Source of the DNA: an archaeon
Lineage (GTDB): Archaea; Nanobdellota; Nanobdellia; Pacearchaeales; GW2011-AR1
Reading direction: 5' to 3'
Length of the DNA: 64,000 nucleotides
NCBI GenBank assembly: GCA_024653565.1
Contig: JANLIK010000015.1
Coordinates: 21,289 to 85,288 of the forward strand
Part shown: in pieces, positions 37,215 through 62,556 of the stretch
Position numbering within the stretch: position 1 is the stretch's first letter
Layout: each line of letters begins with the position of its first letter
Translations under genes and position numbers: made by a program
The notes under the pieces: model-generated
The model's input: only the letters and a program-made list of their open reading frames with translations
What the model was told of the DNA's origin: nothing
The model's database searches: none

Positions 37215-37241
37215 GCACCCTTCACAAGAAAAGGAAAGATT

Positions 37242-37379
37242 ATGTATCACGTAGGAATAATCATAGTTTGTTTTTTGGTCGCCGTAATCGTCATCTTCTT
37301 TCTCCTTCGAGAAGTAGACAAAAGGGATCACAAAAAGTTCCGGGACGAGCAGGAAAAGTTCTGGGACGACAATCCATAG
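37242..37379 (+). CDS. Small single-TM peptide (45 aa) at the right edge of the G+C-rich island
   Basis: ORF with one TM helix and an AAGGAAAG SD-like upstream region. A long hairpin follows at 37400-37436. Confidence 0.3.
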   Translation: MYHVGIIIVCFLVAVIVIFFLLREVDKRDHKKFRDEQEKFWDDNP

Positions 37380-37477
37380 GACAAGACCAAAGGCAGAAGA
37401 GGGAAGCGATGACTTCGATGCGCTTGCCCTCTTTGACCAAACAAAAAATTTAAATACTATAGTGCACTATGTAGTGT

Positions 37478-52751: not shown

Positions 52752-53204
52752 CTAAGCCAAATCTTTAATTGTTTTTGCTTTTAGAAGTTTGTTTAGGGTA
52801 GTATATATCCTACCCTGAACATGACCCCTTCCCCTTCCAAGATTGTCTTTCTTTATAGTGTTTTTTAATTTAATCATCCGCTCAAAAAGAACTAGGTGGA
52901 ATGGGGGATTTGCATCTGGAAAACAGTAAAGCCAATAACCAAAACCAACCTCACCCTTACTCGCCTCCTTAAATGATTTAACCTTAGCATAATGAGTAAT
53001 TTTCCCACCAGTATAAAACGCAAAATACTTTAATATCTTCCTCGATCCTTTTGGAAAGGCAAAAAAGTTTTTCTTTTTTAGAATGTTCCAAGAGTAATCA
53101 TCTATAGAGACTACCACTACATCCCTTTCATCAGCCATTAATAGATGAAGAAGAAGATATTTATAAGGTTTCTTGAATTCCAGAATTGTCGGGAATAAAG
53201 TCAA
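52752..53204 (-). CDS. Hypothetical protein, possibly restriction-modification associated (150 aa)
   Basis: ORF overlapping the upstream gene. Co-directional with the methyltransferase. Confidence 0.4.
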   Translation of the reverse strand: MTLFPTILEFKKPYKYLLLHLLMADERDVVVVSIDDYSWNILKKKNFFAFPKGSRKILKYFAFYTGGKITHYAKVKSFKEASKGEVGFGYWLYCFPDANPPFHLVLFERMIKLKNTIKKDNLGRGRGHVQGRIYTTLNKLLKAKTIKDLA

Positions 53205-54003
53205 TCCTTATTACTCCCCGGAGTTTCTTTTTCTTTCCAGAGCTAGTAGATTGCATATAGATATCAAACTTACATATTCTATCCTCTTTTAGATAAAAGA
53301 GAACACTTATACCCTGGAAAGATATTCTAAGATTCTCCGGTTCCTTTCTCAGCTTCTCGAAAATGGAAGAAAATTTAGTACAATAACCCTTAAATTCTCC
53401 ATTTTTATTAACCACAGTCAAAAGAAGATTAGTTCCTCCCCTCATTTCTGAAAGTAAATTTTTAACAAAAGATATTTTGTCTATAGAAAATTCCCTACTC
53501 AAAATCTCGGCTAATTTTTGAGCTCCCCATTTCCCAATAACCTCTGATTTAACCATATCTTTTGAATAAAGATCACCCAATTCCAAATAATTCTTTTTTT
53601 CTTCGTTATCTAAAAAATCTTCAAATCCCTTACCCGTAAAGATTTTACAAAGAGAGTTTGGAGTAAAATTCCTAACATTAACTCCACTAAAATTATTTTG
53701 GGTTTTAAGAGAATATCCTTTCCTAGATCCGTCCACCAATTCTAATAAAATATCGAAATCTTCTCCACCTTGTTTTTTATTTTCCTCCCCAACAACTTTG
53801 GCAGTTTTTATTTCTTGTCCCACTAATTCCCTAATCTTTTCAGAAGCTTTTTTACTTGCTAAAATCACCCTATCTTGATCTATTTTCAATGAAAGCCGAT
53901 TTAGATACTCTTTTGATTTCTTCTTTAAATTTTCAGAATCATCTAAAAGGGAAGCTGTAGTCCATTCATGTGCTCTCCCAATTGAATCTATCTTTTGAGG
54001 CAT
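53161..54003 (-). CDS. Candidate type II restriction endonuclease (280 aa)
   Basis: Located immediately downstream of the C5-MTase. The segment GEDFDILLELVDGSRKGYSLK is compatible with a PD-ExK core. No family recognised. Confidence 0.35.
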   Translation of the reverse strand: MPQKIDSIGRAHEWTTASLLDDSENLKKKSKEYLNRLSLKIDQDRVILASKKASEKIRELVGQEIKTAKVVGEENKKQGGEDFDILLELVDGSRKGYSLKTQNNFSGVNVRNFTPNSLCKIFTGKGFEDFLDNEEKKNYLELGDLYSKDMVKSEVIGKWGAQKLAEILSREFSIDKISFVKNLLSEMRGGTNLLLTVVNKNGEFKGYCTKFSSIFEKLRKEPENLRISFQGISVLFYLKEDRICKFDIYMQSTSSGKKKKLRGVIRIDFIPDNSGIQETL

Positions 54004-54065
54004 GAATAATAAAGGGGTGTATGCTATTTAAGTAAAATGCACTTCCATCTAGACAAAATTATAAC

Positions 54066-55127
54066 TTAACCACTCAATTTTTTATCTCTTTTCATAATCT
54101 CTCGGGCTATTTCTTCAACAAGTTTTGGAGGAACAGCATTTCCAATTTGCTTTACAACATCTGCTCGATTCCCCGCGAACATATATTCTTTTGGAAAGCC
54201 CTGTATCTGTGCCAATTCCTTGTTTGTAAAATCTCTTAGAAAAAAACCTTTATTATTTTTTATTCCTACATATAATCTTGGTTGAAAACTATATCCACAA
54301 TGGATTGTCTTGGTAGGAGAGTCTAAGTTTGCCATCTCTATATGGTGGGGGGATATTCTTCTACCAAAAGAAATTTTCCCTTCTTTTAATTTCATTAATA
54401 AATAGGGATGTGGTTTCCCTGTTGGCTCTTCATCAGAATCATAGAATAATATATCCTTTTCCTTTAATTCATGAACCTCTGAGGGATTACTTTCAACAGA
54501 ATTTATATTAGTTAGTTCAATTAAATGCCTTATTGTGGGTAAATTATTCTTGGTGTGTAAGGGTTTTGGAAAACCAAACTCTATACCCTCTTTACTACCA
54601 ACAAAGAAAACCCTCCGCCTTTTTTGAGGGACTCCATATTCTTCCGCTTTCAAAACTTTTGGTTTAGCCATTTTATAACCGATTTCTTCAAATGCTTTAA
54701 CAATAACTTCCGCTACATCACTTTCCCCATCATCAGTTTTTCTATGTAATAATCCGGCAACATTTTCTCCAATTATCCATTTAGGTTTTATTAATTTTGT
54801 AGCTCTAACAAACTCCCAAAATAATTTATTCCTTGTATCGTTTGGGTCTTTCTTTCCAGCATGAGAAAATCCCTGACATGGAAACCCGGCAAATAAAACA
54901 TCAATTTGCCCCTCATATTTCCTAAACTCTTCATCAGAAATCTTGGTTATATCTCCCCCAACATCTTGCCCAATAAAAGTAGATTCTGGAAAATTGAGTT
55001 TATGTGTTTCAATTGCCCTCTTCCAGAATTCAACAAATCCCACAACCTTAATTCCAGCGTCCTCTAAACCTTGGGTATCTCCTCCACACCCAGCAAATAA
55101 GCTTATTGCCTTCCACTCTTTTTCCAT
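54066..55127 (-). CDS. DNA (cytosine-5)-methyltransferase
   Basis: Motif I FAGCGG, motif IV GFPCQGFS, motif VI GENV and motif X QIGNAV. Confidence 0.85.
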   Translation of the reverse strand: MEKEWKAISLFAGCGGDTQGLEDAGIKVVGFVEFWKRAIETHKLNFPESTFIGQDVGGDITKISDEEFRKYEGQIDVLFAGFPCQGFSHAGKKDPNDTRNKLFWEFVRATKLIKPKWIIGENVAGLLHRKTDDGESDVAEVIVKAFEEIGYKMAKPKVLKAEEYGVPQKRRRVFFVGSKEGIEFGFPKPLHTKNNLPTIRHLIELTNINSVESNPSEVHELKEKDILFYDSDEEPTGKPHPYLLMKLKEGKISFGRRISPHHIEMANLDSPTKTIHCGYSFQPRLYVGIKNNKGFFLRDFTNKELAQIQGFPKEYMFAGNRADVVKQIGNAVPPKLVEEIAREIMKRDKKLSG

Positions 55128-55256
55128 ATCAACCCCTAACCTCTTTCATTTAAAATGTTTTGTATACTCTTTTTAATTATGGAACACTTAGGCGCCTAAA
55201 CTTTATAAACCTTTCGGCGCCGATATCTTTAAATAATATTTCCTTTTAAAAAGGGG

Positions 55257-55412
55257 ATGAAGCTACAAAAACACTATACTCAAAAGGGAAAGAAATATCC
55301 TAAATATGAGGTGGTAATCCCAAAAGATGTAGTGAAAGACTCGGGTTTTAAAGAAGGTGATGAATTAGAAGCAACAGCAACAAAAGGAGAGATAAAACTA
55401 AAGAAAAAATGA
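55257..55412 (+). CDS. AbrB/MazE/SpoVT-type swapped-hairpin small protein (51 aa; antitoxin or regulator-like)
   Basis: EVVIPKDVVKDSGFKEGDELEATATKGEIKLKK matches the AbrB-like beta-barrel pattern. Overlaps the next gene by ATGA. Not in the ORF track because it is under 60 aa. Confidence 0.55.
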   Translation: MKLQKHYTQKGKKYPKYEVVIPKDVVKDSGFKEGDELEATATKGEIKLKKK

Positions 55413-56059
55413 CCACACACAAGCTCTCCCCCTCCGCCATTAATCTCATGAAAGACTGCCCCCGCTGTTTCTGGCTTACACAACACAAAGTATGGAAAAG
55501 ACCTTCAGGCCCCTTCCCATCTCTTCCCTCGGGCATGGACAAAATCTTAAAACACCACTTTAACAAATTCCGAGACAAGGGAGAACTACCTCCAGAACTC
55601 TGCGAACACCAACACTGCACAAACATGAAGCTATTTGATGATGAAGAAAAGATGAAAGTCTGGCAAAGCAACTTTAAGGGAATCTCATTCACAGACAAGG
55701 CCGGAAACGAACTTCATGGAGCAATAGATAATATCCTAGTCAAAGGCAAAAAACTAATCGTCCTAGATTACAAAACAAGGGGCTACGCCCTAAAAGAAGA
55801 TACTGCAGAACATTACAGACTCCAACAAAATACCTACAACTTCCTCCTAAGAAAAATCGGCCATGAAACAGAAGACTTCTTCTTCCTTTTATTCTATGTT
55901 CCAAAAGAAGTCGCCACAACCGGCGAAGTCATCTTTGATACCGAACTAGTTAAGATGAGGGTTGACACCAAAATGGCAGAAAAAGCCTGGAAGGATGCCT
56001 TGAAGCTGTTGAACGAAGATTGTCCAAAGAAGAGTTGCGGGTGGTGTGATGGGAGATGA
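55409..56059 (+). CDS. Cas4/RecB-like PD-(D/E)xK nuclease with a Cys cluster
   Basis: N-terminal CPRC, core D..ID...K..L.VLDYKT, and C-terminal C-x5-C-x2-C (CPKKSCGWCDG), consistent with a DUF83/Cas4-like FeS nuclease. Confidence 0.55.
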   Translation: MTTHKLSPSAINLMKDCPRCFWLTQHKVWKRPSGPFPSLPSGMDKILKHHFNKFRDKGELPPELCEHQHCTNMKLFDDEEKMKVWQSNFKGISFTDKAGNELHGAIDNILVKGKKLIVLDYKTRGYALKEDTAEHYRLQQNTYNFLLRKIGHETEDFFFLLFYVPKEVATTGEVIFDTELVKMRVDTKMAEKAWKDALKLLNEDCPKKSCGWCDGR

Positions 56060-56511
56060 CTTATTTTAAAAATATTAAAAGAACTACAGAAGAAATAATT
56101 AATCACAACAAACATATTTTATCTGTTAGTGGAGGGAATTTTGGAATTATAAATAAGTCAACTTTAGAGTTTGCAGTAGATTCAGTAAATAACGAAATAG
56201 ACCCAATAAAACAAGCAGGAAATTTTCTTTATTATGCAGGAGCAGGACATCCTTTTGAAAATGGAAATAAAAGAACTGCGTTTGAGATAGCAAAAGGAAT
56301 TATGGCTTCTGGGGCGATAGTTATTGATGCCTCTGAGACAGGGATAATTAATTTTGTTACTGGAAGTGTTGCTCAAGGAAAAACAGATGTAAAAACAGTT
56401 ACAAATTGGCTCTCTTCACATTCAAGACTTACAGATGAACATCCCGAATTTAATAGGATAACAAAAGAGAATATAGATAAAGATAAGGAGTTATTAAAAA
56501 AGCTTGATTAA
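56056..56511 (+). CDS. Doc/Fic family toxin-like protein
   Basis: Fic motif variant HPFENGNKRTA (the Doc-type HxFx(D/N)(A/G)NKR). Overlaps the upstream gene. Confidence 0.7.
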   Translation: MTYFKNIKRTTEEIINHNKHILSVSGGNFGIINKSTLEFAVDSVNNEIDPIKQAGNFLYYAGAGHPFENGNKRTAFEIAKGIMASGAIVIDASETGIINFVTGSVAQGKTDVKTVTNWLSSHSRLTDEHPEFNRITKENIDKDKELLKKLD

Positions 56512-57113: not shown

Positions 57114-57503
57114 ATGAACCAAAAACTCCTCAACTATGTTCTTGAAGCAAGGCGAAGAGGTTACAGCGACCAAATGATAAAGAATCTACTTCTCAAATAT
57201 AATTGGACAGAAAAAACAATAAAAGAAGTCTTCTCTGAACTCAATAAAGAATCAAAAAAGATTATAACAAAAAAAGATGTGGGTAACAAAGTCAAAACAT
57301 TCGCCTACTTGGATAAATCAATCATAGATTCATTAGAAAAAAGGGCGGTCAAAAATCTCTTTACCCTAAACGAACAAATCGAAGATATTTTGAGAAGAAG
57401 CGTTGTCAATCAAAAGAAAAGGCCCTCTAAAATCACCGACAACATCGATGATAAGCTACTAACAATCTTTTCTAGAAAGAATACGGGACCAAAGAAGAGG
57501 TGA
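57114..57503 (+). CDS. Hypothetical basic protein (129 aa)
   Basis: ORF only. Confidence 0.4.
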   Translation: MNQKLLNYVLEARRRGYSDQMIKNLLLKYNWTEKTIKEVFSELNKESKKIITKKDVGNKVKTFAYLDKSIIDSLEKRAVKNLFTLNEQIEDILRRSVVNQKKRPSKITDNIDDKLLTIFSRKNTGPKKR

Positions 57504-57562
57504 ATTGTCTCAGATATCCTATATTTAGCAACATTTAAATATCTCAATCGCTAATTAAAAAT

Positions 57563-57745
57563 ATGGTAAATGCGGTTTTAGAAGCTTTAGCTGAAGAGGC
57601 CCCTAGTGTAATGACTGCCGGAGAAGAAGCATATCTCTCTAGCATGATGCCCGAAGTAAGACAGGAAGGATATACCTGTGTTTCGGGGTGCAGTAATTGT
57701 GTCAGTTGCGATGGCAACGATCGCTACGCTTCAAAAGAAAAATAG
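57563..57745 (+). CDS. Candidate RiPP precursor peptide (60 aa; acidic leader plus C-terminal core with 5 Cys: YTCVSGCSNCVSCDGNDRY)
   Basis: Small ORF immediately upstream of a radical SAM/SPASM enzyme. Cys-rich C-terminal core. Confidence 0.5.
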   Translation: MVNAVLEALAEEAPSVMTAGEEAYLSSMMPEVRQEGYTCVSGCSNCVSCDGNDRYASKEK

Positions 57746-57797
57746 AATTTTAATTAGGGCCTATTTAAGAGGTTGTTTTAGATAGAAAGGTATTCAA

Positions 57798-58889
57798 ATG
57801 ACAAAAAAGCAACTGTTCATTCAATGGGATTCGACAAATGATTGTAATCTTAGGTGTCGCCATTGTTACCATAATGAAAAGGGTGAAAAAGCCCATAGAC
57901 AAGAAGACTCTGACTTAATGAGTCTCTCCGAAGTAGAAGACATGGTTGATGATCTTGTAGATACATCTCAAAGATGGGGTATGGACCCAAGGTTTCACAT
58001 TTCTGGTGGAGAACCTCTAAAGCGAAGGGATTTATTTAAAATCTTAGAGTATACTCAACAAAGGGGTGTAGCCACAAAAATTCTTACTAATGGAACCCTA
58101 ATAACACCTGAAAAAGCAAGAGCATTGAAAGAAAGAGGAATAAAAAGATTACAAATTTCAGTTGATGGAGACAGAGAAAGGCATAATGATGTAAGACAAA
58201 GACCCTATGCCTTTGATAGGGCTATGCAAGGTATTGCTAATTGTCGGGCAGAAGATATAGGAGTTACAGTCTCTTTTACAGCCATGCAATCAAACAAAGA
58301 CCATATTGAGCAGGCCATAAAAGATTCTATAGAGGCTGGAGCAGATATATTTGGAATTCAGTCCTATGTTCCAACAAGAGAGCTGGGAGTTAATGACCCC
58401 GAATTTATTGATGCAAAAGGGATGTATGATATTTATAAGGTCCAAAGAGAATTAGAAGAAAGATATGGAGATAAAATATCTCTCCTCGAAACAGAAGTCT
58501 TATGGCACTTAATGCATTGTGATGACCCTTTAAAAGAGGCTTCTAGAGAAAAAGGAAAATATTTAGGGGGTTGTGGTGCAGGATTTTCAGGAGTTGCAGT
58601 TCTTTCTAATGGAGTAGTTTATCCATGTAGAAGACTCCCAATAGAGATAGGGCATATTAGTGAAGGACTAGTTAGGCTTATCACAGAAAAGAAAGTCATG
58701 AAAGATTTAAGAGATTTGGAGCGTTTAAAAAAAGAATTTGGTTGTGAATATGTTTCTCACTGTAAGGGATGTAGAGCAATAGCATATGCAACAACAGGAG
58801 ATTTTATGAATAAAGACCCTATGTGTTTTAGAAACCTAGTTAAACCAGGAGACCTCAAGGACAGGTATACAAAAGATGCAACCAGCTAA
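57798..58889 (+). CDS. Radical SAM protein with a C-terminal SPASM domain (peptide-modifying maturase type)
   Basis: CNLRCRHCY (CxxxCxxC) motif and C-terminal auxiliary-cluster cysteines (CGAGFSG...C, CKGCRAIAY...C). Confidence 0.85.
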   Translation: MTKKQLFIQWDSTNDCNLRCRHCYHNEKGEKAHRQEDSDLMSLSEVEDMVDDLVDTSQRWGMDPRFHISGGEPLKRRDLFKILEYTQQRGVATKILTNGTLITPEKARALKERGIKRLQISVDGDRERHNDVRQRPYAFDRAMQGIANCRAEDIGVTVSFTAMQSNKDHIEQAIKDSIEAGADIFGIQSYVPTRELGVNDPEFIDAKGMYDIYKVQRELEERYGDKISLLETEVLWHLMHCDDPLKEASREKGKYLGGCGAGFSGVAVLSNGVVYPCRRLPIEIGHISEGLVRLITEKKVMKDLRDLERLKKEFGCEYVSHCKGCRAIAYATTGDFMNKDPMCFRNLVKPGDLKDRYTKDATS

Positions 58890-59379
58890 ACCTATAATTG
58901 TGGAGATTATGCAAAAATTAAACCCTACATCTGTTTTGGATATCGGCTGTGGTAAATGTAAATTTTCTCAAAAATTTATTGACTTGGGAATAAATGTAAT
59001 AGGAATTGATAGAAAACCCACAACCCAATCATCAGAGAATTTCACATTCATCCAACAAGACATATTAGACTTTAAATTCGAGCCGAAATACGATTTAATT
59101 GTTGGGACGGGGATTTTACATTTGTTAAAAGAAGAAGAAGCTAAACAATTAATAAAAAAAATGCAAAAAAACACTATTAGAGAAGGCTTCCACTTTCTAA
59201 TTTGTATGTCTAATGAAGAGAATCCAGAAAACGAGATTTATTTTTATCCAGATGAAGAGGTATTAAATAAATTATACCCTGATTGGGAAATCATTTACAA
59301 TACCTCTGTGCTTTCCAAAGAACATGGTAAACCCCCACATCGACATAAAATGATTTTATTTCTGGCCAAAAAGGTTTAA
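58876..59379 (+). CDS. Class I SAM-dependent methyltransferase
   Basis: VLDIGCGKCKFS glycine-rich SAM-binding motif. Confidence 0.7.
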   Translation: MQPAKPIIVEIMQKLNPTSVLDIGCGKCKFSQKFIDLGINVIGIDRKPTTQSSENFTFIQQDILDFKFEPKYDLIVGTGILHLLKEEEAKQLIKKMQKNTIREGFHFLICMSNEENPENEIYFYPDEEVLNKLYPDWEIIYNTSVLSKEHGKPPHRHKMILFLAKKV

Positions 59380-59380
59380 C

Positions 59381-60118
59381 ATGGAAGATTTTAATCGGAA
59401 TTTTTCAGAGGTTTACGAAGTTGAAGGACAAAAAATTGTATCTAAAAGACACCAAAAGCCAATTTTCCTAAGAAGAGAATTATTCTTTTATGATTTGTTC
59501 CAAAAAACAGGATTAGTTAGAACGCCAAAAGTTTATGGGGTTGAAGGGCTTTGTCTCAAAACACATTTTATAGAAACTGAAAAAAAAGACATTCTTCAAA
59601 CAGCCGCAGAATGGGCAAGAGTCCATTCATATTTTATAAAAAATCCCCTTCCTAATAATCGATTGTTATTCCCCCATAACATACAGGCTGTTGCCTCATT
59701 TATTCTTGAAAATAAGGATGCCTTCGGTGAACTTGGGGCTCTTGTTGAAAAAGCACTATCTGACTTAAAAGTAGAAATGGAATTAACAACAATTCTTCAT
59801 GGAGACTTACAGGACAAAAATATGGTCACATTTCAGGGGCAAAATTATTATTTTGATTTTGAGTTAAGTGGACTGGGACATCCTGGGAGAGATGTTGCCT
59901 CAATGATAATCTCTAACCCAGATAGAAGGAAGGAGATAGAAAGAATTTATAGAACAAATATTGATTTTGATTATTCTCTTCTTGGAGAAGACACAAATAC
60001 ATGGCTAATAGCAAGAGCAGCAGAATTATATTTAATACTTAGTAAAAGAAAAGGTCCAACAGAAGTAAAAAGGAGGATTAAAAGTAGATTATTAGATATT
60101 ATTCAAAGTTCTAAATAA
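59381..60118 (+). CDS. Aminoglycoside/choline-kinase-like phosphotransferase (APH fold)
   Basis: Brenner-like motif HGDLQDKN and a downstream D...G motif. Confidence 0.6.
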   Translation: MEDFNRNFSEVYEVEGQKIVSKRHQKPIFLRRELFFYDLFQKTGLVRTPKVYGVEGLCLKTHFIETEKKDILQTAAEWARVHSYFIKNPLPNNRLLFPHNIQAVASFILENKDAFGELGALVEKALSDLKVEMELTTILHGDLQDKNMVTFQGQNYYFDFELSGLGHPGRDVASMIISNPDRRKEIERIYRTNIDFDYSLLGEDTNTWLIARAAELYLILSKRKGPTEVKRRIKSRLLDIIQSSK

Positions 60119-60140
60119 TCTTTTATTAAAACTCAATAAG

Positions 60141-61019
60141 ATGCCTACATTTGAAACTAGGTCAAAAGTTTATCCATTTACTACAGAAAATCTTGCAGGA
60201 TACATGCCTAATTTAAATTTAGAAGGAAAGAAAGTTCTAACAGTCACAGGTTCTGCAGACCATATGATAAATTCTTTTTTATTTGGAGCAGAAGATGTTG
60301 TTTGTTTTGACATAAATACTCTTGCTACTTTCTTTGCAGAACTTAAAATTAAAGCATTAAAAAGGTTAGATTTTGAGCAGTTCAAAAGATTCTTTTTACT
60401 AGGCGATGGAGGAACAATGGATTTTAAGGTTTACTCTTCCATAAGAAACGAATTATCTCTTGGTTGCGTTAGATTTTTTGATGGAGTCTACAGAATCAAT
60501 GAAATGGATGGGGAAGAAGTTCGAAGATCAAAGTTATTTAATAAAAGATTTGATATTGATAAATTAAGAATTCGAAGTAATCCTTATTTACATTCAGAAG
60601 AACAATATGAAGCAGTTAGAGCAAGAGTAAAATCGGAGGTTAAATTAATCAACTCATCTGCCAAAGACTTAGCATCTAAATTAGATGAAGAATTTGGGGT
60701 AGTCATGCTCTCAAATCTAGCCGATTATACTCAAAGTATGTTTCCCCATAGTCCTAATCATCTAGAAAGATTCTGTAGGAAAATAGTCTCTCCAATAAGA
60801 GATCATTTAAGCCAGGGAGGGGTTATTTGTGGCGCCTATGTTTATGATGCAAGCCCGATGGGAGAAAAAACCCCAAGATATAAGGGTCCTGTAGATGACC
60901 CTGCAAAAAGAAGAACAAGTTTTGAAACTTTAGAAATGGCTTATGAAGAAAGAAAATTTCCATGTATTGTCCCAGGTAAAGAAGATAGGGAAGATTTAGT
61001 AGTTATATTGACTAAATAA
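60141..61019 (+). CDS. Methyltransferase-like protein (DUF3419-like; weak)
   Basis: VLTVTGSADHMINSFLFGAEDVVCFDIN resembles a SAM-binding region. Low certainty. Confidence 0.4.
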   Translation: MPTFETRSKVYPFTTENLAGYMPNLNLEGKKVLTVTGSADHMINSFLFGAEDVVCFDINTLATFFAELKIKALKRLDFEQFKRFFLLGDGGTMDFKVYSSIRNELSLGCVRFFDGVYRINEMDGEEVRRSKLFNKRFDIDKLRIRSNPYLHSEEQYEAVRARVKSEVKLINSSAKDLASKLDEEFGVVMLSNLADYTQSMFPHSPNHLERFCRKIVSPIRDHLSQGGVICGAYVYDASPMGEKTPRYKGPVDDPAKRRTSFETLEMAYEERKFPCIVPGKEDREDLVVILTK

Positions 61020-61695: not shown

Positions 61696-62556
61696 TCAAT
61701 CAAACCCCATTACAATCTTACAATCTCCAGGACATTCCCTAAAGTTCTCTCCATTATCACAGGTTCCATCGCCACAGATGTTTCCACAATCTCCACCCGT
61801 TTGTTTAGGACAATACTTATCACTTAACGAATCATCTTCTCCAGGAGAGCATATTCCATCGCCACACTTTATCCAATCACAGTCTGCAGGACATTCTTGG
61901 GGATTTTCTCCCTTATCACAGGTTCCATCGCCACAAATGTTCCCGCAATCTCCACCCGTTTGTTTGGGACAATACTTCTCACTTAAAGGATTGTCTTCAC
62001 CACAACTATATCCCTTACATTTTCCATCTCCACAAGTTCCACAACAATCATTATAACAATTCTTTGGATTCTCTCCAGCCTCACATTTATTATTCCCACA
62101 CTCTGAACCCAAATCATTAATCTCATTTTTAGGAGCCTTTGGTTTAACAAATAGGTTTTGGAAAAAATGGAGAATTCTAAACTTGATATTAGAAATGAAA
62201 CCAACACCCCTATACTCAATCCCTCCAGTGGCCAATGCCTCTTGAAAATCTAAAGTACCTTCCATTAACTCATTAAGAACACCGCTACCAACATAAATAT
62301 TAAGTGATGGCTTCTCGACTCCACCATTTCCCTCTTCAATAATCTTTCCTTCTGAAGTAATCAAATGATAAGACAATTCTTCATCAAGATAAACATCTAT
62401 TCTTTGATTTCCAAATATCCTATCAACAGAAGACGTTCCCGCGATGTTATCATTATAATAAGTAGAAAATTGAGATATTTCTCTGCTCTCTGCGCTAACA
62501 ACCAATGATAAAAAGACAACTATAAATAGCCCTATAAAAGCCAATCCTCTTTTCAT
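61696..62556 (-). CDS. Secreted protein with three Cys-rich repeats, CGDGTCD.GEN..EC style
   Basis: Signal peptide. Repeated C.K..GGDCGNICGDGTCD.GEN..ECP.DC modules resemble myxobacterial-type disulfide repeats. Confidence 0.55.
   Translation of the reverse strand: MKRGLAFIGLFIVVFLSLVVSAESREISQFSTYYNDNIAGTSSVDRIFGNQRIDVYLDEELSYHLITSEGKIIEEGNGGVEKPSLNIYVGSGVLNELMEGTLDFQEALATGGIEYRGVGFISNIKFRILHFFQNLFVKPKAPKNEINDLGSECGNNKCEAGENPKNCYNDCCGTCGDGKCKGYSCGEDNPLSEKYCPKQTGGDCGNICGDGTCDKGENPQECPADCDWIKCGDGICSPGEDDSLSDKYCPKQTGGDCGNICGDGTCDNGENFRECPGDCKIVMGFD

Follow-up and report, generated by a model that had tools for sequence, protein, structure and literature searches.

What is made by a block of five genes in which a 60-residue, cysteine-rich open reading frame (ORF) precedes a radical S-adenosylmethionine (SAM) enzyme with a SPASM domain? 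The block lies on contig JANLIK010000015.1 of an archaeon of the order Pacearchaeales, within a stretch of 64,000 nucleotides that was analyzed as a whole and is referred to here as the window. A first-pass annotation had read it as a cluster for a peptide that is made on the ribosome and modified after translation (RiPP), and comparative data strengthened this reading: the small ORF is conserved, it is syntenic with the same enzyme genes at other loci, and the peptides share a leader motif. The locus is probably a RiPP-type maturation cassette of an uncurated family, with the peptide very likely its substrate; that the radical SAM step forms thioethers is a tentative assignment, to which we give somewhat less than an even chance.

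A peptide gene with a constant leader and a variable core

The small ORF can be taken as a real gene because it has homologues at 62–68% identity and because substitutions among its orthologues fall mainly at third codon positions. A word-indexed search returned four other peptide clusters (P0002–P0005) in that identity range, one of them from a Pacearchaeota metagenome-assembled genome (MAG), and an exhaustive search of 1.84 billion representatives, with a profile built from the window-type peptides, returned eight true peptide representatives; a ninth match, a spurious repeat protein, was discarded. Over a block of 27 codons in 13 orthologues, differences at codon positions 1/2/3 numbered 414/335/996, with 652 synonymous versus 563 non-synonymous codon differences. 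Judged by this substitution pattern, the ORF is translated and subject to purifying selection. The peptides have no match among Pfam or NCBIfam models, even at E ≤ 10.

The near-invariant block of the peptide reads L25-x-S-M-M-P-E-x-R-Q-E-G-Y-T-C-V-S-G-C-x-x-C-x-S-C-x-G-x-D. The leader is acidic, as first proposed (7 Glu versus 1 Arg in residues 1–36), but the core (YTCVSGCSNCVSCDGNDRY / YTCVSGCSNCVSCDGND), to which the first-pass annotation had ascribed 5 Cys in 14 residues, carries 4 Cys (C39, C43, C46 and C49) in an 11-residue span, CVSGCSNCVSC, with the pattern C-x3-C-x2-C-x2-C. Many homologues stop exactly at ...GND.

Among 32 representative peptides covering all subgroups, the leader motif E-x-x-Φ-(L/F)-x-x-Φ was found by pattern in 31 (for example, EEAYLSSM, EKEFLNSM, EKQLLDKY and EKDVFKKI) and recognized by eye in the last, L128 (EYLNSM). 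The C-terminal part of the same peptides is hypervariable, with 3 to 9 Cys at differing spacings, and multiple Cys are the only core feature conserved universally. Peptide classes shift in step with divergence of the radical SAM enzyme: cores of the type ...GYTCVSGCxxCxSCxGND accompany enzymes with at least 60% identity to that of the window, ...CxxCxxCGSGDCxSCC...DD those at 53–60%, ...Y(G/H/N/S)CDPCDACGP... those at 48–53%, and CNTCKQCPGCGCMC / ...CNTCKQCPGCGCMCNND those at 40–42%. A fixed recognition sequence joined to a diversifying core that apparently co-evolves with the enzyme is the standard RiPP pattern and argues against a fixed metal site. The generic definition of a RiPP precursor–maturase pair likewise describes what was found here, namely a conserved leader, a variable core and synteny with a modifying enzyme across taxa.

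In about 60 loci from Pace-, Woese- and Nanoarchaeota, an ORF of 50–90 aa adjoins orthologous genes for the radical SAM/SPASM enzyme and a TehB-like methyltransferase, in flanks that are unrelated. All contigs with peptide homologues carry the peptide, the radical SAM enzyme (368 aa) and the methyltransferase (167 aa), followed by a 244-aa kinase gene and/or a DUF3419 gene in either order, with flanking genes that again differ between contigs. Homologues of the radical SAM enzyme comprise more than 120 cluster representatives (47–77% identity), all with generic names only. A scan of GTDB species representatives gave 29 loci at 41–77% radical SAM identity, all from Woese-, Pace- or Nanoarchaeota MAGs except L035, which is labeled uncultured Methanosarcinales; below 41%, identity falls sharply to bacterial proteins (Nitrospirota, Desulfobacterota) at 32–35%. 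The methyltransferase gene adjoins that for the radical SAM enzyme in 28 of these 29 loci (tblastn) and in most metagenome loci. A Cys-rich ORF of 50–90 aa stands directly beside the radical SAM gene in 27 of the 29, upstream in 26 and downstream in L035; a frameshift interrupts this ORF in L027, and in L023 it lacks an ATG start. The contig end cuts L028, and the radical SAM gene of L041 is truncated. In the metagenome scan, the Cys-rich ORF was present at 40 of 52 DPANN-type loci, most of the others being cut at a contig end. No ORF with the leader motif, or otherwise comparable, was found beside any of 27 bacterial radical SAM relatives (31–35% identity), and the IMG/VR viral contigs scanned held no copy of the cassette. 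One bacterial relative, L053, has an ORF of 39 aa with a TTG start, which encodes four Cys.

The arrangement is thus far beyond chance, and the family is confined to DPANN archaea among the genomes scanned. It had been called unusual for a reduced archaeal genome. DPANN archaea do have tiny genomes and very few recognized biosynthetic clusters (bioRxiv 10.64898/2026.04.17.719132); the locus is no one-off, recurring as it does across Pace-, Woese- and Nanoarchaeota MAGs.

Some loci depart from this layout. Two DPANN loci carry a second, distant radical SAM gene (about 24% identity; L026 10467-12452 (-) and L024 11125-12096 (-)). In L026 this second gene is accompanied by a separate small ORF rich in Cys (...YSCDAVCDNCHCATF) and by a neighbor for an HExxH protein related to a 207-aa protein of L095; this suggests several paralogous peptide systems per genome. 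In L129/L130 (on a 55-kb contig) and L041/L149, the radical SAM gene lacks its N-terminal half (matching query residues 132-362 or 154-348 only) beside an intact methyltransferase gene and an intact kinase or HExxH gene, and these may be decaying or rearranged cassettes. A radical SAM relative from Deltaproteobacteria (L050 6001-7035) has one in-frame stop codon; it might encode selenocysteine, mark a pseudogene or stem from a sequencing error.

The radical SAM/SPASM enzyme and its relatives

The second gene encodes a SPASM-domain radical SAM enzyme, as judged from the Pfam domains PF04055 (Radical_SAM, 92.7 bits, 3.8e-26) and PF13186 (SPASM, 26.0 bits against a cut-off of 21.5, 1.1e-05), the CxxxCxxC motif, the auxiliary-cluster Cys, and the fold. 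The motif Cys (C16, C20 and C23) and six C-terminal Cys are invariant in 15 homologues (48–100% identity). An N-terminal RiPP recognition element (RRE) is absent, since the motif begins at residue 16, and alignments start only at residue 104 of CteB and residue 115 of SkfB. In sequence, the closest PDB relatives in a search with the family profile are SkfB (4e-23) and CteB (8e-23); an AlphaFold2 model (mean predicted local distance difference test (pLDDT) score 89.2) has SkfB, BlsE, SuiB, PqqE and anSME as fold neighbors.

Curated families place the enzyme elsewhere. The best NCBIfam models are those of the ACGX system (TIGR04340, 185.5 bits against a cut-off of 400), AhbD (185.2 against 500) and NirJ2 (173.1 against 500). 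Peptide-maturase models score lower (ScmE 109, SbtM 105, MftC 85, PapB 84.9 and StsB 73.6 bits), all far below their cut-offs, and distant DPANN members and bacterial relatives have the same scoring pattern. By these scores, the enzyme belongs to an uncurated SPASM clade near the AhbD/NirJ/ACGX branch, outside the SCIFF, sactipeptide and ranthipeptide families. The first-pass comparison with sactipeptide, ranthipeptide and SCIFF-type systems is thus only partly borne out: a Cys-rich precursor with a radical SAM/SPASM enzyme is RiPP-like, but the enzyme falls under every curated cut-off and has no RRE.

The likeness to sactipeptide and SCIFF maturases (CteB, SkfB and AlbA) lies in the small Cys-rich precursor directly 5' of a radical SAM gene with a C-terminal SPASM/Twitch domain, and in the auxiliary clusters. 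In CteB, a substrate Cys thiolate reportedly serves as ligand at an open auxiliary-cluster site; in the window enzyme, each auxiliary cluster would have three conserved Cys ligands rather than four, which is compatible with a substrate-thiolate ligand. Unlike those systems, however, that of the window has no RRE on its enzyme, NCBIfam scores far below cut-off (StsB model, 73.6 against 625; a ScfB-related orphan model, 63.8 against 855), an obligate TehB-like methyltransferase and an archaeal host. For SCIFF itself (TIGR03973/TIGR03974), the peptide has no NCBIfam match at E ≤ 10 and the maturase model is outside the best 25 families listed for the enzyme. Ranthipeptide systems (PapB/freyrasin and QhpD) share with the window cores rich in Cys and Asp, whereas the core motifs here are of CxxC type rather than repeated Cx3D, and the PapB model (NF047865) scores 84.9 against 340. 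The window core does contain C46-x3-D50 and C49-x3-D53, a spacing that we take to be the one used by PapB.

Relatives on the AhbD side share more of the architecture. The radical SAM enzymes of the ACGX system and AhbD/NirJ2 align over their full length and have the same compact, RRE-less build, and the SPASM part of AhbD shares C-x17-C ... C-x5-C-x2-C-x17-C with the window enzyme. Scores of 173–186 bits against cut-offs of 400–500, and a context of peptide and methyltransferase rather than tetrapyrrole genes, set the window apart; its core also lacks ACGX repeats, and no peptide model of that system matches. Of the eight-Cys motif of Methanosarcina barkeri AhbD, CX20-33CX17CX36-37CX2CX5CX2CX17-35C (PMC10452713), the family retains equivalents of C256, C274, C315, C321, C324 and C342, whereas those of C223 (auxiliary cluster I, AuxI) and C312 (AuxII) are missing in most members. 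Set against the CteB motifs TGCGSGHEYLAVTPEGDIYPC ... CDSCWAKFYCSGGC, the family keeps CX12GX4C and has Asn, Glu or Asp where CX2C has its first Cys; the divergent members P0122 and P0125 retain CX2C. Of the full 7–8-Cys SPASM motif (CX9-15GX4C ... CX2CX5CX3C ... C), CX12GX4C is present; most members lack both the first CX2C Cys and the AuxI Cys upstream, which P0122 and P0125 keep.

An anSME-type sulfatase maturase is not indicated: TIGR03942 is outside the best 25 families for the window enzyme, a distant member scores 75.6 against 349, and no sulfatase lies in the flanks. With auxiliary-cluster Cys present and invariant, neither a sulfatase nor a heme context, and a conserved small ORF, the first-pass reading of the pair holds up. 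A known defense system was also considered and rejected, as PADLOC finds only generic similarity of the radical SAM core to viperins (68.8 bits).

Tailoring enzymes and residue–gene co-variation

The one partner that travels with the radical SAM enzyme throughout the family is the class I SAM methyltransferase. It falls in Pfam TehB (4e-15, 56.2 bits against a cut-off of 20.4) and, also above the gathering score, in Methyltransf_25, and it matches the TehB homologue 3m70 in the PDB at 3.7e-9. Against NCBIfam TehB equivalogs it reaches 50–65 bits where cut-offs are 218–303; by these scores it is TehB-like rather than TehB. Peptides from methyltransferase-bearing loci mostly end in Asp (GND, DD or SD; L020-L040, L113-L148), and those at the few loci without it end otherwise (L118 ...TNS, L123 ...CAH, L142 ...IKV and L128 ...RKE). 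The contrast is a hint that a C-terminal Asp may be the target of the methyltransferase, with L124, L125, L127 and L140 as exceptions.

The fourth gene encodes an APH-fold kinase (PF01636, 1.6e-07, 31.8 bits against 23.2) in which D142, N147 and D159 (HGDLxxKN...DFE) are invariant across the kinase alignment; its nearest solved relative is the amicoumacin kinase (3.6e-05). It is remote from the class V lanthipeptide kinase LxmK (13.4 bits against a cut-off of 315), and no HopA1-like lyase is encoded in the cassette.

For the fifth gene, the first-pass label of methyltransferase-like can be corrected to the BtaA/DUF3419 family (PF11899, 3.9e-11, 43.2 bits against 28.2, over the N-terminal 110 residues and profile positions 8–116 of 385). 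The record of the identical protein at NCBI (MCR4323396) is named 'BtaA family protein', and JGI calls a homologue a SAM:diacylglycerol 3-amino-3-carboxypropyl transferase; DUF3419 is the family of betaine-lipid synthases (PMC10685587). The AlphaFold2 model (pLDDT 89.8) has a class I methyltransferase-like fold.

The kinase and BtaA-like genes are almost confined to the window-type subgroup, where their occurrence is nested, BtaA never being found without the kinase. In microcin C, MccD is likewise a SAM enzyme of 3-amino-3-carboxypropyl transfer, and by analogy the restriction of BtaA to kinase-bearing loci suggests a phosphate-directed or phosphate-dependent tailoring step. However, the window locus has no MccB- or MccE-like genes, and MccD is, to our knowledge, not a DUF3419 protein.

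Single core residues vary with these genes. All seven BtaA-positive loci (the window, L005, L007, L013, L016, L018 and L102) have C49-D50-G, whereas all 13 BtaA-negative window-type loci (L001, L010, L015, L017, L019, L020, L021, L095, L097, L098, L105, L107 and L108) have Gly50. On a neighbor-joining tree of the radical SAM enzyme (unbootstrapped, with short internal branches), BtaA-positive loci fall in at least two groups and the BtaA-negative, Gly50-bearing L001 sits beside the group of the window, giving at least two independent BtaA/Asp50 switches. Among window-type loci, the kinase is missing only from L017 and L097, which group in a single clade; in place of the C-x-S-C found at every kinase-bearing locus, these two have C-(V/I)-P-C. 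These patterns are suggestive of accessory enzymes that act on the peptide, with Ser48 a candidate phospho-acceptor and Asp50 a candidate target or determinant of the BtaA-like enzyme.

In the subgroup with CDPCDAC cores, the methyltransferase gene is followed by one for a 222-aa soluble protein in which G-H-E-L-x-H and a Glu downstream of it are invariant, as in a gluzincin-like signature. The window-type locus L105 carries a homologue (45% identity) upstream of its peptide, and at L095 and L096 the kinase is followed by a different HELAH protein. The HExxH protein, a putative peptidase by this signature, has no Pfam, NCBIfam or PDB relative. Because no homologue of this sister-locus protein was found in the window, the locus, which had been described as complete, is not demonstrably so.

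Proposed maturation, alternatives and genomic setting

In the maturation scheme that we propose, the leader (E21-x-x-Y-L-x-x-M28) would dock the peptide on the RRE-less enzyme, whose CxxxCxxC cluster would cleave SAM to a 5'-deoxyadenosyl radical that abstracts a hydrogen atom from some residue of the core. The thiolate of a core Cys could bind the open iron site of a SPASM cluster with three Cys ligands and then join the carbon radical, leaving one or more intramolecular thioether bridges, most plausibly from Cys to Asp, Asn or Ser carbons. The TehB-like enzyme would then methylate the product at a thiol or carboxylate. In the window subgroup, the APH-type kinase might phosphorylate the core, with Ser48 the candidate site, and the BtaA-family enzyme might transfer either a methyl or a 3-amino-3-carboxypropyl group from SAM to a site at or near Asp50, perhaps to the phosphate; transfer of a 3-amino-3-carboxypropyl group to a RiPP phosphoramidate by MccD of microcin C is a precedent (PMC11350588). 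Leader removal would fall to an unlinked protease in the window genome and to the cassette-encoded HExxH protein in sister subgroups. All of this chemistry is inferred from sequence.

Several findings weigh against this scheme. Scores against thioether synthases (PapB 84.9, StsB 73.6) are below those against ACGX, AhbD and NirJ2, and the CxxCxxC spacing of the core also resembles Fe–S and other metal-binding motifs. No RRE, and no peptidase, exporter or immunity gene to accompany the peptide, was found in the window by ORF listing, Pfam or homologue check. The DUF3419 match is limited to the N-terminal, SAM-binding third of the model, a PDB fold search with the BtaA-like model returned only generic class I methyltransferases (TM-score ~0.45), and its profile matched nothing in the PDB. 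The co-variation stems from few independent events on an unbootstrapped tree, and the link between Ser48 and the kinase is a single event.

The nearest competitor keeps the cassette and its substrate and changes the reaction, to oxidative decarboxylation (the reaction of AhbD with propionates and of MftC with a C-terminal residue), a C–C or C–O cross-link involving the conserved Tyr37, epimerization, or conversion of Cys to formylglycine. We regard this as unlikely on balance, though a serious contender: the top curated-model scores (AhbD, NirJ2 and ACGX) are those of a decarboxylase-type branch, a Tyr lies 1–2 residues before the first Cys in most subgroups, the C terminus is usually Asp, and PqqE, SuiB and anSME are as near in fold as SkfB. 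Those scores amount to only 35–45% of the family cut-offs, however, multiple Cys are the sole universal feature of the core, and the closest PDB sequence matches are thioether synthases. A reading of the enzyme as a tetrapyrrole enzyme of AhbD/NirJ type, with the upstream ORF irrelevant, goes further and is scarcely credible. Although the enzyme matches the AhbD model over its whole length at 185 bits and JGI auto-annotation names some homologues 'AdoMet-dependent heme synthase', the score is far under the 500-bit cut-off, the enzyme lacks two of the eight SPASM Cys of AhbD, the annotated flanks of more than 10 loci contain neither ahb nor nir genes, and linkage to the peptide and methyltransferase is near-universal.

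Other alternatives concern the peptide. Its product could be a cofactor or metal chelator retained by the cell (like mycofactocin, PQQ, a metallophore or a metallothionein) instead of a secreted antimicrobial, as the lack of an exporter or immunity gene in the ~60 loci inspected, the SPASM relatives MftC and PqqE, and the Cys- and Asp-rich cores would allow. We think this rather improbable in view of the patchy DPANN distribution (~29 species representatives), variable flanks that often resemble defense islands, hypervariable cores more typical of conflict or signaling peptides, and a kinase whose nearest solved relative inactivates an antibiotic. That the small protein is a mini Fe–S or other metal-binding partner of the enzyme (an electron donor or chaperone) and not a substrate is very unlikely. 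The C-x2-C-x2-C and C-x3-C-x2-C-x2-C spacings do resemble ferredoxin-type ligand motifs and the enzyme has no RRE, but the number (3–9) and spacing of the Cys vary widely while the conserved part is a leader motif without Cys; in addition, putative peptidase, kinase and transferase co-vary with the peptide and with single non-Cys residues, and bacterial relatives of the enzyme function without such a partner.

The maturation cassette can also be extended to a more specific, and decidedly long-shot, proposal: a RiPP class new to science and exclusive to DPANN archaea, in which an RRE-less, AhbD-like SPASM enzyme would cross-link a CxxC-rich core, followed by methylation, Ser48 phosphorylation and 3-amino-3-carboxypropyl transfer by the BtaA-family enzyme (directed by Asp50 or onto the phosphate), with a product that mediates interaction of the episymbiont with hosts or competitors.

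Within the window, the five genes are co-directional and closely packed, as ORF listing and Pfam matches agree, at the coordinates given by the first-pass annotation; they are separated in order by 52 nt, a 14-nt overlap, 1 nt and 22 nt, and each has its Pfam matches, where it has any, above the gathering score (Table 1). NCBI records of identical proteins are MCR4323400 for the peptide and MCR4323399 for the radical SAM enzyme; look-ups of these two by exact sequence returned no recorded contig. At its spacing from the start codon, TTTAAATA would suit an archaeal TATA box giving a leaderless mRNA. A scan for bacterial-type promoters and terminators gave no excess over shuffled expectation, a comparison that is uninformative for archaea.

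Table 1. Positions in the window of the cassette genes and of motifs within them
Feature	Positions	Strand	Basis or remark
TATA-box-like TTTAAATA	57534-57541	+	Read from sequence; 21 nt before peptide ATG
Precursor peptide gene (60 aa + stop)	57563-57745	+	ORF listing
Leader motif E21-E-A-Y-L-S-S-M28	57623-57646	+	Family consensus E-x-x-Φ-L/F-x-x-Φ
Putative core Y37-TCVSGCSNCVSCDGN-D53, invariant C39, C43, C46, C49	57671-57721	+	Alignments
Variable C-terminal tail RYASKEK	57722-57742	+	Missing from many homologues
Radical SAM/SPASM enzyme gene (363 aa)	57798-58889	+	ORF listing; Pfam
CxxxCxxC radical SAM cluster motif (C16, C20, C23)	57843-57866	+	ORF translation; alignment
SPASM region, six invariant Cys (C259, C277, C316, C322, C325, C343)	58572-58826	+	Alignment; mapped to CteB, PqqE and M. 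barkeri AhbD motifs
TehB-like class I SAM methyltransferase gene (167 aa)	58876-59379	+	ORF listing; Pfam
APH-fold kinase gene (245 aa)	59381-60118	+	ORF listing; Pfam
BtaA/DUF3419-family SAM-binding protein gene, short form (292 aa)	60141-61019	+	ORF listing; Pfam

Directly 5' of the peptide gene, a 129-aa ORF (57114-57503, +) has no significant Pfam or NCBIfam match; it is not kept beside the cassette at other loci and so probably lies outside it. A defense-type, variable neighborhood precedes the cassette (53161-56511), with a C5 DNA methyltransferase-like ORF (54066-55127, -; called from sequence motifs alone) beside a 280-aa ORF that is a possible restriction enzyme (no PADLOC match), a PD-(D/E)XK/Cas4-like nuclease (55409-56059) and a Fic/Doc toxin (56056-56511). 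Just 3' of the cassette, a 286-aa protein (61696-62556, -) without a Pfam match combines a hydrophobic, signal-like segment at its N terminus with repeats of a Cys-rich module (GDCGNICGDGTCDxGENxxECPxDC). The cassette of L019 also has a Cys-rich, secreted-type protein of 941 aa nearby, and weaker, partial matches occur in L031 and L033. Farther away, a sharp-edged block of ~7 kb (30400-37400) has 57–66% GC in a genome of 34% GC. It holds a 979-aa ORF (31378-34317, +) with Major Vault Protein (MVP) shoulder (1.9e-22) and vault-repeat (2.9e-11) domains, then a Peptidase_M29 gene (34443-35795; 4e-115) and a 363-aa ORF without a family. Either the assembly is chimeric at this block or the DPANN archaeon carries a foreign island with an MVP-like gene; rRNA was rejected as its source, as Rfam finds none at 30–37 kb.

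Surveys with antiSMASH have placed radical SAM-type RiPP clusters across the archaea, including DPANN, with only haloarchaeal lanthipeptides validated (PMC12144867), and no archaeal radical SAM-modified peptide has been characterized (PMC12144867; bioRxiv 10.64898/2026.04.17.719132). No description of this cassette family was found in the literature consulted. It is a coherent family with clear boundaries, comprising ~60 loci with at least four classes of core peptide an obligate pair of radical SAM enzyme and methyltransferase, and a distinctive set of accessory enzymes. It comes with testable predictions for single residues: the kinase would act at Ser48, and the BtaA-like enzyme would depend on Asp50. 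As a tractable entry to new radical SAM peptide chemistry, the family may lead to molecules with which ultra-small archaea act on their hosts, and it may give the DUF3419/BtaA family its first non-lipid function. If the proposed role of the BtaA-like enzyme is true, it would be the first peptide modification catalyzed by a DUF3419 protein.

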